From an uncultured Actinomycetes bacterium (lineage in GTDB: Bacteria > Actinomycetota > UBA4738 > JBBDTT01), in the NCBI GenBank assembly GCA_963742735.1, contig CAVUMN010000003.1, forward strand, positions 736,001 through 800,000: a stretch of DNA of 64,000 nucleotides, given 5' to 3'. Of the stretch, positions 28,826-55,627 are shown piece after piece. The position numbers and the translations under genes are program-made. Numbering within the stretch: position 1 is the first letter of the stretch; each line of letters starts with the position of its first letter. Below the pieces are notes generated by a model that saw only the letters and a program-made list of their open reading frames with translations, made no database searches and was not told where the DNA came from.

Positions 28826-28954
28826 AGCTCGTCTTCGGGGCGGGGTGTGATTCCCCACCGGCGGTGAGAGTCCGCGACCCTCTGGCATCCGGTCAGGGGT
28901 GGACCCGGCGAAACTCCGGGACCGACCGTACAGTCGGGATGAGAGAGGACGGGC
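28826..28954 (+). ncRNA. FMN riboswitch (RFN element)
   Basis: TCTTCGGGGCGGGGTGTGATTCCCCACCGGCGGT...AGTCCGCGA...GACCCGGCGAAACTCCGGGACCGACCGTACAGTCGGGATGAGAGAGGA; upstream of ribD; -10 TATACT at 28806-28811. Confidence 0.95.
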
Positions 28955-49730: not shown

Positions 49731-51264
<1,534 letters not shown>

Positions 51265-52076
51265 AGCCATTGGCAAAACCTGGACCCGCTCGAGGAGAGT
51301 TCGGTACTCCTCCCGCGGACCGTCCGGGGGTTCCAGGTCAATCACTGGTTATTCCGGTCGCGTTCAGCGTGCCGAGAGCACTTAGTACGCCCAGCAATGG
51401 GAGTGGAACGGAGCTCGAGGTTCGCCGGCCGTGTCCGGGGCACACTGTTTGGTCCTGAGGGTGCGAGCCCTCGGGCGGGAGAAGCTGTCCCGTCCGTGAC
51501 CTTGAGAACCGCATAGCGAGCGCGAGCATCTACAGTCAAGTTAGTAAGGGCTTACGGTGGATGCCTTGGCGCCAGGAGCCGATGAAGGACGCGTGAGGCT
51601 GCGAAAAGCCCCGGGGAGCCGCCAACAAGGCTGGGATCCGGGGGTGTCCGAATGGGGAAACCCGGCCGGGGTCATGCCCGGTCACCCAGGTCTGAATACA
51701 TAGGGCCTGTGGAGGGAACCGCGTGAACTGAAACATCTCAGTAACGCGAGGAAGAGAAAGCAACCGCGATTCCCCAAGTAGCGGCGAGCGAACGGGGATG
51801 AGCCTAAACCGGTGCGGCGTGATACCCCTGCGGGGTTGCCGTGCCGGGGTCGTGGGACCCACATGCGAGTGCGCAGGAGCTCGCGGGGAGTTACAAAGTT
51901 AGCGGATAGTCGAAAGCCATGGAAAGGGCTGCCACAGCGGGTAAGAGCCCCGTAGGTGAAATCTGACTGACCTCCCTCGTGGTGTTCCCGAGTAACACGG
52001 GACCCGAGAAATCCCGTGTGAATCTGGGGGGACCACCCCCTAAGGCTAAACACTCCCTGGCGACCGATAGTGAACC

Positions 52077-52107
<31 letters not shown>

Positions 52108-52606
52108 GGGAGGGGAGTGAAACAGTACCTGAAACCGTGAGCCTACAAGCTGTCGGAGCTCGTCGTTGGGTAACCAGCGGCGGGTGACGGCGTGCCTTTT
52201 GAAGAATGAGCCGGCGAGTTAGCCGTATGTGGCGAGGTTAAGTCTCTGGACGAAGCCGTAGCGAAAGCGAGTCTGAAATGGGCGTCCAGTCGCATGCGCT
52301 AGACCCGAAGCCGAGTGATCTATCCATGGGCAGGTTGAAGCGGAGGTAAGACTCCGTGGAGGACCGAACCCACCAGGGTTGAAAACCTGGGGGATGACCT
52401 GTGGATAGGGGTGAAAGGCCAATCAAACTCGGTGATAGCTGGTTCTCCCCGAAATGCCTTTAGGGGCAGCCTCGGGCGTTCAGTATCGGAGGTAGAGCAC
52501 TGAACGGGTTAGGGGGCCTACAAGCTTACCGACCCCGATCAAACTCCGAATGCCGATACTCCAGAGCCCGGGAGTGAGGGTGCGGGGGATAAGCTCCGTA
52601 CCCGAG

Positions 52607-52639
<33 letters not shown>

Positions 52640-52679
52640 CAAGTTCGTGCTAAGTGGGAAAGGATGTGGGATTGCCCAG

Positions 52680-52714
<35 letters not shown>

Positions 52715-53637
52715 GAAAGAGTGCGTAACAGCTCACTGGTCAAGTGGTCCCGCGCCGACAATGTAACGGGGCTAAAGCACGACACCGAAGCTGCGGCATT
52801 CCTCGTATGGCTCGGCCTCGTTGGGCAACCTTCGAGGTCCAGGCCGAGGGATGGGTAGGGGAGCGTTCTCACGCGAGAGAAGCGGCGGGGTGACCCAGCC
52901 GTGGATGCGTGAGAAGTGCGAATGCCGGCATGAGTAGCGAGAGAGGGGGGAGGAGCCCCTCCGCCGATTGTCCAAGGGTTCCTGGGGAAGGTTCATCCGC
53001 CCAGGGTTAGTCGGGCCCTAAGCCGAGGCCGACAGGCGTAGGCGATGGAAGACAGGTTGATATTCCTGTACCAGCTCATTCGCGCCAAGGCCGAATCCAG
53101 GTTGCTAAGGGAACCCCCTTCGGGGGGCTACCGACCCACCTGGTACTAGGCCAGCGAAGGGGGGACGCAGGAGGGTAGGTGGACCCAGGCGATGGTTGTC
53201 CTGGGGTAAGCGTGTAGGGGGGTCCCCCAGGCAAATCCGGGGGGCCATCAACTCCGAGGCGTGATACCGAGCCGCATCAGGCGAAGCCACTGATCCCATG
53301 CTGCCGAGAAAAGCCTCTAGCGAGCGAGTGAGCTGCCCGTACCCCAAACCGACACAGGTGGACAGGTAGAGAATACCGAGGCGATCGAGATAACCCTGGT
53401 TAAGGAACTCGGCAAGTTGCCCCCGTAACTTCGGGAGAAGGGGGGCTTCGGTAGGGTGAGATCCTTCGCGGATCGAGCCCGATGAAGCCGCAGAAACCAG
53501 GCCCAAGCGACTGTTTACTAAAAACACAGGTCCGTGCGAAGTCGCAAGACGCTGTATACGGACTGACGCCTGCCCGGTGCTGGAACGTTACGGGGATGGG
53601 TTAGCTCTTCGGAGCGAAGCTCTGAACCTAAGCGCCA

Positions 53638-53719
<82 letters not shown>

Positions 53720-54170
53720 CGACTTGGGCACTGTCTCAACCGGGGACTCGGCGAAATTGCAATACGAGTAAAGATGCTCGTTACCCGCGGAAGGACGGAA
53801 AGACCCCGGAACCTTTACTGCAGCTTGGTGTTGGGTTCTGGTATGCGCTGCGTAGGATAGGCGGGAGGCTTTGAAGCTCGGACTCTGGTTCGGGTGGAGC
53901 CAACCTTGAAATACCGCTCTGCGTGTACTGGGACTCTAACCCGGGTCCATGATCTGGATCGGGGACAGCGCCAGGTGGGCAGTTTAACTGGGGCGGTTGC
54001 CTCCTAAAAGGTAACGGAGGCGCCCAAAGGTACCCTCAGTCTGGTCGGCCATCAGACGCCGAGTGCAAGGGCACAAGGGTGCTTGACTGCGAGATCGACG
54101 GATCGAGCAGGTGCGAAAGCAGGGCCTAGTGATCCGACGGTGGCATGTGGAAGCGCCGTCGCTCAACGGC

Positions 54171-54202
<32 letters not shown>

Positions 54203-54240
54203 TTCCCAAGAGTCCATATCGACGGAACGGTTTGGCACCT

Positions 54241-55047
54241 CAACATCTGGGGTGAGGCGGGAGAAATCCCGTTCCAAGTATCGGCTTATAACGGCGAACC
54301 CCTAGCTGTCAGAGGCTCTCTCTACAGTGGGCAACGCCGTGGGAAGTCTGTCGGGAGTGCAGCGAGAGATCGTCATCGGGAGCTTGCTCGGCGATGGCGG
54401 GATGCGCTGCAAGACCAACGCGCTTCTCGAGATCAATCATTCCTTCCGCCAGCGAAGCTACGTCGACTGGAAGTACAGCCGGCTGGCCGAGCTGGTAGCC
54501 ACGCCACCCAAGGTGCGACGTGGGAACGGCGGCAGGATCGCGTATCGATTCACGACGCGAAACCTGCCGGCGCTGACTCCCTACTTCGAGCTCTTCTACG
54601 GAGAAGGAAGCAAGCGCGTTCCATTCGTGGAACTCGCCCCGCTCACCCTTGCGGTGTGGTTCATGGACGATGGTTCGAGATCGAGAAACGCGGTGTATCT
54701 GAACACTCAACAGTTCGACGAGGCGAGTCAGATCCGTCTCCTCGAGCTTCTGCGGGAACAGTGGGGGATCGAAGGATCGCTCAATCGGGACAAGACCTAT
54801 CACCGGATTCGCATCTCGGTGACGGGGACGGCCCGGCTGGGCGAGATCGTCGGCCCGCATCTGCTTCCCGAGCTCAGATACAAGCTCCCGCAAGTGACCC
54901 CGTAACGACTGAGGCCGCGGCCTCGGTGGCGGACCACTGCCTGGTACTCCCAGGCAAATCTACGGCCGCCACAACACGCCGACCCCTCGCCTTTGGTCAG
55001 GCAGGGTGAAGACATAGTCTGCGCCACTGGTAACAGTGGATCCCGTG
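54241..55047 (+). mobile_element. Group I self-splicing intron in 23S rRNA after U2500 (E. coli numbering), IA-like with P7 extensions
   Basis: 5' exon ends in U, intron ends in G; P1, P3, P4, P7, P9 and P10 pairings can be read by eye; S element AAGACATAGTC. Confidence 0.93.
54327..54905 (+). CDS. Intron-encoded LAGLIDADG homing endonuclease (two-motif, LAGLIDADG_2 / I-SceI-like)
   Basis: IVIGSLLGDG and LAVWFMDDG helices, YVDWKY, YRFTT, LNTQQF, terminal LRYKL. Confidence 0.9.
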   Translation: MGNAVGSLSGVQREIVIGSLLGDGGMRCKTNALLEINHSFRQRSYVDWKYSRLAELVATPPKVRRGNGGRIAYRFTTRNLPALTPYFELFYGEGSKRVPFVELAPLTLAVWFMDDGSRSRNAVYLNTQQFDEASQIRLLELLREQWGIEGSLNRDKTYHRIRISVTGTARLGEIVGPHLLPELRYKLPQVTP

Positions 55048-55063
55048 CGATGTCGGCTCGTCG

Positions 55064-55114
<51 letters not shown>

Positions 55115-55133
55115 CGGTACGCGAGCTGGGTTT

Positions 55134-55164
<31 letters not shown>

Positions 55165-55283
55165 TCCGTGGGCGTAGGAAACTTGAGGGGAGCTGTCCCT
55201 AGTACGAGAGGACCGGGACGGACGCACCTCTGGTGTGCCAGTTGTCGCGCCAGCGGCACGGCTGGTTAGCCACGTGCGGAAGA

Positions 55284-55314
<31 letters not shown>

Positions 55315-55508
55315 TTGCCCCGAGATGAGGTTTCCCATCCCTTTGTGGAGTAAGGCCCCTCGCAGACTACGAGGTTGATAGGCCGGAGGTGTACGCACGG
55401 CAACGTGTTCAGCCGACCGGTACTAATAGGCCGAGGACTTGACTTTGCTCGCGCTCGCTATGCGGTTCATCCAAGGTAACCGCTCGCACACCTCGCAAGA
55501 TCCGAGGT

Positions 55509-55627
55509 TTCTCGGTGACCATAGCGGAGGGGTCACACCCGGTCCCATCCCGAACCCGGAAGTTAAGCCCTCCTGCGCCGATGGTACTGCCCTGGAGACG
55601 GGGTGGGAGAGTAGGTCGTCGCCGGGA
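55509..55627 (+). rRNA. rrf: 5S ribosomal RNA
   Basis: CACACCCGGTCCCATCCCGAACCCGGAAGTTAAG...GATGGTACTG...GGGAGAGTAGGTC. Confidence 0.97.

Follow-up and report, generated by a model that had tools for sequence, protein, structure and literature searches.

What interrupts the 23S rRNA gene of this uncultured Actinomycetes bacterium, and how would an intact ribosomal RNA be made from the interrupted gene? The DNA analysed here, hereafter the window, is a 64-kb stretch (bases 736001-800000 of contig C3, GenBank CAVUMN010000003.1) in which Rfam models identified one ribosomal RNA (rrn) operon. Its 23S rRNA was recovered as a single continuous match to the bacterial large-subunit (LSU) model RF02541, and this match spanned 3913 nt, in comparison with the 2925 positions of the model. 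Our analysis of the sequence confirmed that an 807-nt insert at site L2500 is a genuine group I intron with an open reading frame (ORF) for a predicted LAGLIDADG homing endonuclease. The explanation that best accounts for the whole of the data, and in which we place high confidence, is that an IA-type group I intron with an I-SceI-family endonuclease separates U2500 from C2501 in the only assembled 23S gene; from this we infer splicing of the intron, the activity and target of the endonuclease, and present mobility of the element.

The position of the insert was determined by several independent comparisons. When the region 54150-55150 was searched alone, the RF02541 match was interrupted after model position 2526: its 5′ part has GGCACCU at the end, and its 3′ part begins at 55048, the equivalent of model position 2527. 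A global MAFFT alignment with E. coli 23S rRNA (L086, 2904 nt) showed a single insertion of 807 nt, from 54241 to 55047, after E. coli position 2500, the remaining insertions in the same alignment being of 13-68 nt each. The ungapped BLAST match to E. coli 23S stopped at base 2693 of the locus, corresponding to 23S base 2500, and the uninterrupted 19-mer of the insertion site was that of E. coli 2494-2512. Altogether, Rfam, MAFFT, BLAST and the 19-mer bear out the 807-nt split of the 23S gene at L2500 that had been described in a first-pass annotation of this DNA. At the DNA level the border of the insert is ambiguous by one base, with a C starting both the insert and the 3′ exon; the borders 54240/54241 and 55047/55048 were chosen because, according to group I rules, a U precedes the 5′ splice site and a G precedes the 3′ splice site.

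The insert can be folded into a ribozyme whose elements follow one another in the order P1, P2, P3, P4, P5, P5′, P4′, P6, ORF, P6′, J6/7, P7, P7.1, P7.2, P3′, P8, J8/7, P7′, P9 and terminal G (Table 1). This is the canonical order of group I introns, with the P3/P7 pseudoknot and a complete P3-P8 core. Helices P1, P3, P4, P7 and P9 were found where the first-pass annotation had placed them, and each of them was kept across 71 homologous introns; the sequence likewise agreed with G55047 as last intron base, and the complementarity on which the proposed P10 is based was present in most homologues. The strings around P7 (CGUAACGACUG and UGAAGACAUAGUC) resemble the classical R and S consensus elements. 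In the scheme of Michel and Westhof of 1990, extra P7.1/P7.2 (or P7.1/P7.1a) elements between P7 and P3′ reportedly mark subgroup IA (IA3). Two such extra hairpins are found between P7 and P3′ in the window intron, where the first-pass annotation had noticed several, and both are backed by covariation (Table 1), so that an IA-type architecture fits the predicted fold.

Support for the proposed helices was obtained from the homologue family. For 71 introns, those of the 70 loci and that of the window, the 5′ parts and the terminal 215 nt were aligned with MAFFT with no fitting to structure, and the helices of the window were projected onto the alignment columns. Over 60 proposed pairs, standard pairs were present in 3815 of 4154 cells (91.8%), a level that fell to 38.2-45.4% when the 3′ partners were slid 1-3 columns either way. 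Compensatory double changes, each in at least two sequences, were observed in 35 of the 60 pairs vs 17-21 pairs after sliding. In addition, for each of nine variable helices, among them P3, P4 and P9, the observed pairing exceeded that of all 500 column shuffles; P1, P7 and P10 were excluded from this shuffle test. The U.G at the 5′ splice site was conserved in 70 of the 71 homologues, the remaining one reading N. One P4 pair is C-G in the window vs U-A in 67/71, and the last pair of P7 is G.U in 55/71, with U-U instead in 14 sequences. Regarding P10, the number of homologues with complementary strands varied with the position, from 27 to 66 out of the 62-69 that were ungapped there, and covariation is impossible in this element because its 3′ strand is the invariant exon.

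The ORF inserted in the P6 loop matched Pfam LAGLIDADG_2 (PF03161) with E 4.3e-36 and 124.8 bits, vs a cutoff of 25, over profile positions 1-166 of 168, which is in line with the LAGLIDADG homing-endonuclease gene noticed earlier inside the intron. Many homologues have an ATG at the same start position, and the lengths of their ORFs cluster at 187-194 aa. Two LAGLIDADG motifs, LLGDGG and FMDDGS, are present with both acidic residues, and they align to both motifs of I-SceI, the closest solved structure (E 7.3e-10, aligned residues 12-189). The solved relatives comprised four I-SceI variants (E 7e-10 to 3e-9) and one other intron-encoded endonuclease (E 2e-8). Because the I-SceI alignment spans residues 12-189 and both motifs, the product is predicted to be an enzyme of the I-SceI type, small, monomeric and with two motifs. 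The dN/dS values, calculated over 176-177 codons after exclusion of those overlapping the ribozyme core, were 0.117-0.268 in nine of nine comparisons with Actinomycetota-labelled homologues, with dS near saturation. These data show that the predicted endonuclease ORF is intact and under purifying selection.

Coding sequence and ribozyme core overlap at both ends of the ORF, over the first ~8 and the last 3 codons. Bases 54327-54350, which encode the N-terminal peptide GN(T/A)VGSL, also supply P5 and P4 with their 3′ strands and P6 with its 5′ strand; at the other end, 54896-54905 (VTP-stop) also provide the second strand of P6 and the first bases of J6/7. The ends of the peptide are conserved across phyla because the same bases serve the ribozyme core, and translation of the ORF should be incompatible with folding of the ribozyme in the same RNA molecule.

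Table 1. Coordinates in the window of the rrn operon, the L2500 intron and its predicted elements
Feature	Coordinates	Strand	Evidence and remarks
16S rRNA	49731-51258		Rfam
23S rRNA, whole match	51534-55446	+	Rfam RF02541, 2680 bits
23S 5′ exon, last base equivalent to E. coli U2500	51534..54240	+	RF02541 and E. coli alignment
Group I intron, 807 nt, site L2500	54241..55047	+	MAFFT insertion and covarying core helices, 71 homologues
P1	54236-41/54249-54	+	U54240.G54250 wobble at 5′ splice site
P10 (putative), guide with 3′ exon 55049-55053	54243..54247	+	Complementarity
P2 hairpin, GAAA loop 54263-66	54256..54273	+	Compensatory changes in 5/5 pairs
P3, 5′ strand with 3′ strand 54978..54982	54281..54285	+	Compensatory 3/5; 96.3% paired; matches P3 in Rfam alignment of L077
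P4, enclosing P5 (54300-02/54329-31) and a variable P5 extension	54291-96/54335-40	+	Compensatory P4 1/6, P5 2/3
P6, 5′ strand (54341-43, 54346-48, AA bulge) with 54896..54901	54341..54348	+	99.8% paired; compensatory 2/6; same helix in L077
Homing-endonuclease ORF (predicted), 192 aa, GTG start, fills P6 loop	54327..54905	+	PF03161; I-SceI similarity; dN/dS
P7, 5′ strand with 55015-55019	54907..54911	+	Four pairs invariant in 71/71; preceded by conserved J6/7 GUAAC
P7.1 hairpin	54912..54924	+	Compensatory 3/3; 70.5% paired vs 46.2% shuffle mean
P7.2 hairpin	54926..54972	+	Compensatory 7/7 outer pairs; inner hairpin 54939-55 proposed from sequence only
P8 hairpin	54984..55006	+	Compensatory 7/8 pairs
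J8/7 and P7 3′ strand (UGAAGACAUAGUC)	55007..55019	+	Family-conserved; Rfam consensus UgAAGAUAUAGUC in L077
P9 hairpin (55024-29/55034-39), GUAA loop	55024..55039	+	Compensatory 5/6 pairs
Terminal G (omega G)	55047	+	Sequence; G or A in the family
23S 3′ exon, first base equivalent to E. coli C2501	55048..55446	+	Rfam and MAFFT
5S rRNA	55511-55627		Rfam

The intron and the flanking exon were each found once in the 3.08-Mb, 5-contig genome, where the intron occupies the only assembled 23S gene, and a 19-mer search detected no uninterrupted site in this genome. Since a single assembled 23S copy carries the intron, the function of the ribosome should depend on exact splicing, as the first-pass annotation had argued. 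Splicing in vivo is inferred from the ribozyme, which is intact and covaries, from the presence of a single rrn copy and from the essential nature of the site. In the mechanism that we propose, the internal guide GGGGUG would pair with the exon end CACCU, with the resulting U.G marking the 5′ splice site; an exogenous guanosine docked in P7 would attack this site, and the terminal G55047 would then replace it in P7. The freed 3′-OH of U2500 would attack the G55047-C55048 junction, rejoining the exons as GGCACCU-CGAUGUCGG and releasing the intron. The endonuclease would in turn cut intron-less copies of the conserved 23S site, and repair from an intron-bearing copy would spread the element (homing).

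Several observations weigh against this interpretation. The Rfam group I model RF00028 (Intron_gpI) gave no match on the window at its gathering threshold, nor on 54150-55150 at E values up to 10, where the sole extra Rfam row was an sRNA match at chance level (E 2.7). Short inserts with no ORF (257-291 nt), located at the same site in three other loci, do match RF00028 (L077, 40.2 bits, E 1.2e-7; L041, 38.5 bits, E 3.8e-7; L037, 26.8 bits, E 1.2e-3), with all three scores under the 50-bit gathering score of the model. Apart from the P7 pair mentioned above, P1 and P7 are without variation, and covariation is silent on both. The shuffle control takes no account of kinship, and the helices were drawn on the window sequence itself, two circumstances that favour the observed values. 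The genome is 88.9% complete and a second rrn copy could be missing from it. In the public RNA runs, which yielded short contigs from mixed organisms, no informative reads across the 54240/55048 junction were obtained. Regarding the subgroup, the intron Ft.rrl.6 of the Floydiella terrestris chloroplast (381 bp), which shares the insertion site 2500, is listed in Table 4 of its description as IB, not IA (PMC2997540).

The covariance-model check suggested in advance for the insert thus had a divided outcome, negative for the window itself and positive for ORF-less homologues at the same site. The RF00028 alignment of L077 places P2, P3, P4-P6, P8 and P9 on the same blocks as in the window. Helix P6 of L077 (GGG-AA-GUC...GAC-CCC) has a short loop where the window holds the ORF, ~70 unmodelled bases lie between P7 and P3′, where the window has P7.1 and P7.2, and the equivalent of the P7′ string (UGAAGAGAUAGUC) aligns to the Rfam consensus UgAAGAUAUAGUC. 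The ribozyme parts of the window share 78-86% local identity with L077, L041 and L037 (e.g. 113/141 columns). We attribute the miss of RF00028 on the window to the lack in the model of the 550-nt P6 ORF and of the 60-nt P7.1/P7.2 insert, and it was not taken as counting against a group I intron because the ORF-less homologues match the same model.

As for the sequencing runs, no public run contained half of the sampled words of the locus, the best shares being 0.28 and 0.21 for DNA and 0.12-0.14 for RNA. From four of them (X1, X2, X3 and X8), the only contigs obtained were short and came from many organisms. In the soil DNA run X2, one contig joins 54240 to 55048 with 30 letters on the shorter side, a result that any intron-less bacterium would give, and a second contig of 232 nt is identical to 54436-54667 of the ORF. 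The soil metatranscriptome X8 contained two low-depth contigs that match inside the intron (54266-54436, with 3 differences, and 54700-54841, with 7), which indicates that related introns are present in this RNA library.

To place the intron among its relatives, protein and genome collections were searched. Of 2729 candidates, 2304 qualified as protein relatives with E up to 1e-3; the 119 listed non-self relatives have 72-80% identity, and many of them lie on ~1-kb contigs. Among genomes sampled at one per species (GTDB 232), a relative is encoded in 496 stretches, of which the best 80 were examined; inserts were called from both exon motifs with no more than one mismatch, and phylum labels were taken from the record titles. 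An insert of 769-908 nt exactly at the same site was present in 70 of these best 80 loci, three had the short insert (L037, L041, L077), and in the other seven one or both exon motifs were missing from the retrieved stretch (L024, L032, L033, L056, L065, L075, L085). The labels of the 70 loci were Patescibacteria/CPR (candidate phyla radiation) in 28, Actinomycetota-type in 14, Acidobacteriota in 6, Omnitrophota and Proteobacteria in 4 each, Chloroflexota and Elusimicrobia in 3 each, Vulcanimicrobiota in 1 and others in 7. A DNA search with the intron in 60 relatives returned only three short matches (L003-L005, E 3e-4 to 7e-4), taken as chance or conserved fragments.

All but one (L008) of the best 15 genome matches (L006-L020) are metagenome-assembled genomes labelled Actinomycetota, Thermoleophilia, Gaiellales, Solirubrobacterales or Acidimicrobiia, and these 14 genomes carry an 803-824-nt insert at L2500. 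In a midpoint-rooted FastTree phylogeny of 69 endonucleases, from which L029 and L072 were dropped as truncated, the window and the 14 Actinomycetota-labelled sequences formed one clade with L008 nested within it, and the window adjoined L009 and L016. These two loci also have the 23S exons most similar to those of the window, with identities of 83.6% over 1402 nt upstream and 89.1% downstream for L016, and of 90.2% over 305 nt for L009. The GC content is 61.1% in the intron, 59.7% in the exons and 70.7% in the whole window. The view in the first-pass annotation that the host belongs to a lineage with no known introns of this kind is therefore not supported, as 14 Actinomycetota-labelled copies exist at L2500 and the endonuclease of the window falls inside their clade. 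Our reading of these comparisons is that the window intron has probably resided for a long time in a sub-lineage of Actinomycetota, where it was patchily retained or spread, rather than having been imported recently. The assignment of the host to this phylum is itself based on the nearest 23S exons and on the endonuclease clade.

The locus L008 itself, on a 3.5-kb contig with an Acidobacteriota label, encodes an endonuclease that adjoins that of L006 in the tree and has LLGGGA in place of LLGDG, with loss of the first catalytic Asp. It may owe its label to a binning error, or it may be a decaying copy.

Within the order, a close endonuclease homologue was found in 2 of 294 genomes, G000 and G293 (74% identity), and in an even sample of the phylum in 3 of 401, G000 counted. 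The positives besides G000 (G293; G410 and G460) are flagged as unpublished, and both the order count and the phylum count depend on them in part. The uninterrupted 19-mer was present in 158 of the 294 order genomes, and no empty site was detected in the five other intron-bearing genomes checked. The remaining 22 matches within the order (E up to 1e-10; in G062, G066, G178, G053, G071, G290, G086, G281 and 14 more genomes) have 30-39% identity; 21 are located inside frames of 441-997 aa and that of G062 in a 223-aa frame with a stop. These low-identity LAGLIDADG domains are probably inteins in host proteins. Further genomes flagged as unpublished entered the search of 60 relatives (G031, G049), the order homologues (G062, G200) and the 19-mer count (G031, G027, G118, G119, G132, G200, G006, G030, G293).

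The alternative that survives best, which we nevertheless consider unlikely, is that the ribozyme is functional and the element immobile, having been inherited vertically with an ORF kept for another role (e.g. as a maturase) or not yet decayed. The grouping of the Actinomycetota-labelled endonucleases, the coincidence of nearest endonuclease copies and nearest 23S exons in L009 and L016, and an intron GC content equal to that of the exons agree with vertical inheritance, as does the absence of any endonuclease copy closer than 80% identity among 5.8 billion proteins. On the other hand, pure vertical descent would need very many losses because the distribution is patchy, with 2/294 genomes of the order, 3/401 of the phylum sample and an empty site in 158 of the order genomes. 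Moreover, the acidic residues of both catalytic motifs are kept, dN/dS is 0.12-0.27, and L008, with its Acidobacteriota label, is nested in the Actinomycetota clade, where a binning error is also possible.

It appears very improbable that the insert is left unspliced, either retained in the mature 23S rRNA or excised with no ligation to give a fragmented 23S, as occurs with intervening sequences processed by RNase III. An unspliced 23S group I intron is said to have been reported by Everett et al. in 1999, to judge from the title, and the public RNA runs provided no splice-junction reads. U2500 and C2501, however, belong to the conserved peptidyl-transferase core of the ribosome, which is not expected to bear a large insert or a break, and an insert of 807 nt there is not expected to be tolerable. 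All group I core elements are kept with covariation, together with the U.G and the terminal G, which would be needless for excision by RNase III, and the intervening sequences described so far consist of simple stems inserted at different sites (PMC11270868).

The least probable alternative, an assembly or binning artefact in which a foreign intron-bearing 23S fragment was joined into this rrn operon, might be invoked since rRNA operons are frequently misassembled in metagenome bins, most protein relatives lie on ~1-kb contigs and the soil DNA run yielded only the 232-nt identical intron piece and no contig across an exon-intron border, but the operon lies inside a large contig (the longest contig with the protein has 962,622 bases), the flanking exons belong to a single unbroken match over the full length of 23S, the loci closest in their introns are the closest in their exons too, and the same arrangement occurs in 70 other genomes, with no empty site in any of the five intron-bearing genomes checked.

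The family formed by these introns also includes variants with different organization. In L037 (Ca. Zemynaea palustris), an ORF-less intron at 40-340 is accompanied by an endonuclease homologue at 1038-1607, downstream of 5S. The ORF-less intron of L041 (Chloroflexi) lies at 691-957, with the homologue at ~1501-2124, downstream of the 23S end, and that of L077 (Ca. Limnocylindria) at 443-712, with the homologue at ~1501-1968, downstream of 5S and with an internal stop. The free-standing endonucleases of the three loci have 57-62% identity to that of the window. These arrangements look like separated intron-endonuclease pairs, and as such they bear on how mobile introns form and decay.

Variation was also found in the terminal base, which is G in 49 and A in 22 of the 71 introns of the L2500 family. 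The introns ending in A directly before CGAUGUCGG are those of L042-L048, L050-L053, L055, L059, L061, L064, L067, L071, L076, L078, L079, L081 and L082, mostly with Patescibacteria and Elusimicrobia labels. They would be introns with no usual terminal G if the mature rRNA is canonical. A Coxiella 23S intron that does not have the canonical terminal G has reportedly been found as well.

Regarding known systems, the predicted endonuclease is comparable to I-SceI of the yeast mitochondrial omega intron (1r7m, 3oor), likewise a two-motif monomer encoded in an LSU rRNA group I intron. The two proteins differ in sequence, with low identity. The I-SceI intron is located at L2449, in the mitochondrion.

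Group I introns at LSU/2500 have been described in archaea, where the introns IA3.2 and IA3.3, of 799 and 819 nt, were found with an IA3 model (PMC6125680, Nawrocki, Jones and Eddy 2018); according to that paper, all its sites but SSU/1498 (in the small subunit) were already known group I sites. They share with the window intron the rRNA site and the size class, and the IA3 model fits the IA-type hairpins observed here (PMC6125680). In contrast, their hosts are Euryarchaeota-labelled metagenome contigs and not bacteria (PMC6125680). The chloroplast intron Ft.rrl.6 has the same insertion site, but it is organellar and too short to hold an ORF like that of the window (PMC2997540).

A survey of rRNA insertions in CPR bacteria described nine sites in 23S, clustered around the peptidyl-transferase centre, that are occupied by group I introns; many of these introns encode LAGLIDADG proteins of ~180-210 aa, and Rfam classed only 45% of the 23S insertions as group I (PMC11270868, J Bacteriol 2024). 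The window intron resembles these introns in its location within the peptidyl-transferase cluster and in its LAGLIDADG gene (PMC11270868); in our own set, 28 of the 71 positional homologues are Patescibacteria-labelled. The low Rfam rate reported there agrees with the miss of RF00028 on the window, and the CPR sites 23IS9-11 may include 2500 (PMC11270868). The survey differs in that I-ShaI, the enzyme characterised in it, is a single-domain LAGLIDADG_1 dimer at site 23IS7; it regards non-CPR bacteria as a low-frequency background, and neither Actinobacteria nor Actinomycetota appears in its main text (PMC11270868).

The introns of Thermotoga, Coxiella, Simkania and cyanobacteria are, as that of the window, group I introns in 23S domains IV/V, several of them with LAGLIDADG genes (PMC11270868, PMC3984707). 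Their hosts, as described, are thermophiles, intracellular pathogens and cyanobacteria (PMC11270868, PMC3984707), and the bacterial 23S sites named in the survey with LAGLIDADG_1 ORFs are 1917, 1931, 1952, 2593, 2604 and 2657, not 2500 (PMC11270868). In the accessible text of a 2014 review of bacterial group I introns, neither 2500 nor Actinobacteria is mentioned (PMC3984707); that of PMC6849856 does not contain the word 'intron' and that of PMC4524492 does not mention 2500. Our literature search, with most subscription journals outside its scope, retrieved no paper describing a 23S group I intron in Actinomycetota, and the supplements of PMC11270868 and PMC6125680 may list more L2500 cases. 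Nevertheless, a claim of novelty for the window intron fails, since the same intron is present at the same site in many uncultured bacteria and LSU/2500 introns have been published for archaea and a chloroplast. The L2500 family is widespread in uncultured bacteria, rare within Actinomycetota, and scarcely described outside CPR, archaea and organelles.

Other features of the window were recorded in the course of the analysis. The 23S gene contains four expansion segments of 36-68 nt (51811-51852, 51871-51906, 52814-52849 and 53070-53137, after E. coli 274, 292, 1179 and 1400, respectively). A large insertion in 23S domain III is said to mark the high-GC Gram-positives; in the E. coli alignment, a search for it revealed only the 68-nt insertion after E. 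coli 1400 and smaller ones. ARAGORN detected no tRNA gene in the window, the 16S-23S spacer included. Outside the operon, an FMN riboswitch was identified by Rfam at 28827-28954 on the + strand (109.1 bits, E 1.8e-24).

Taken together, the data lead us to a tentative picture, which we regard as quite possible and somewhat short of probable. The window intron might be the tip of an old and largely unrecorded L2500 lineage outside CPR, in soil Actinomycetota, Acidobacteriota, Chloroflexota and others, whose phylogeny would roughly track the host phylum. The intron would lie in the sole rrn operon, so that every ribosome would need ribozyme splicing, and RF00028 would miss the element whenever the endonuclease gene is present. 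All stages of the partnership between intron and endonuclease would exist side by side: the ORF in P6, the ORF-less intron with a free endonuclease behind 5S, and the variants with terminal A.

These observations have practical consequences as well as implications for the biology of the family. The standard group I model misses the L2500 family, and rRNA genes that contain it may be recorded as over-long or broken; the location of many relatives on ~1-kb contigs suggests that such introns may also break short-read assemblies. The small I-SceI-like enzymes, predicted to target a DNA sequence that is among the most conserved known, may serve as meganuclease scaffolds. Group I introns and homing endonucleases in rRNA genes, although rare, occur in common soil phyla too, beyond CPR, thermophiles, intracellular pathogens and cyanobacteria. 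With the intron in the sole rrn operon, all protein synthesis of this bacterium would depend on how accurately the ribozyme splices within the ribosomal catalytic centre, which makes it a natural test case for the tolerance of bacteria to introns in an essential and highly expressed RNA.

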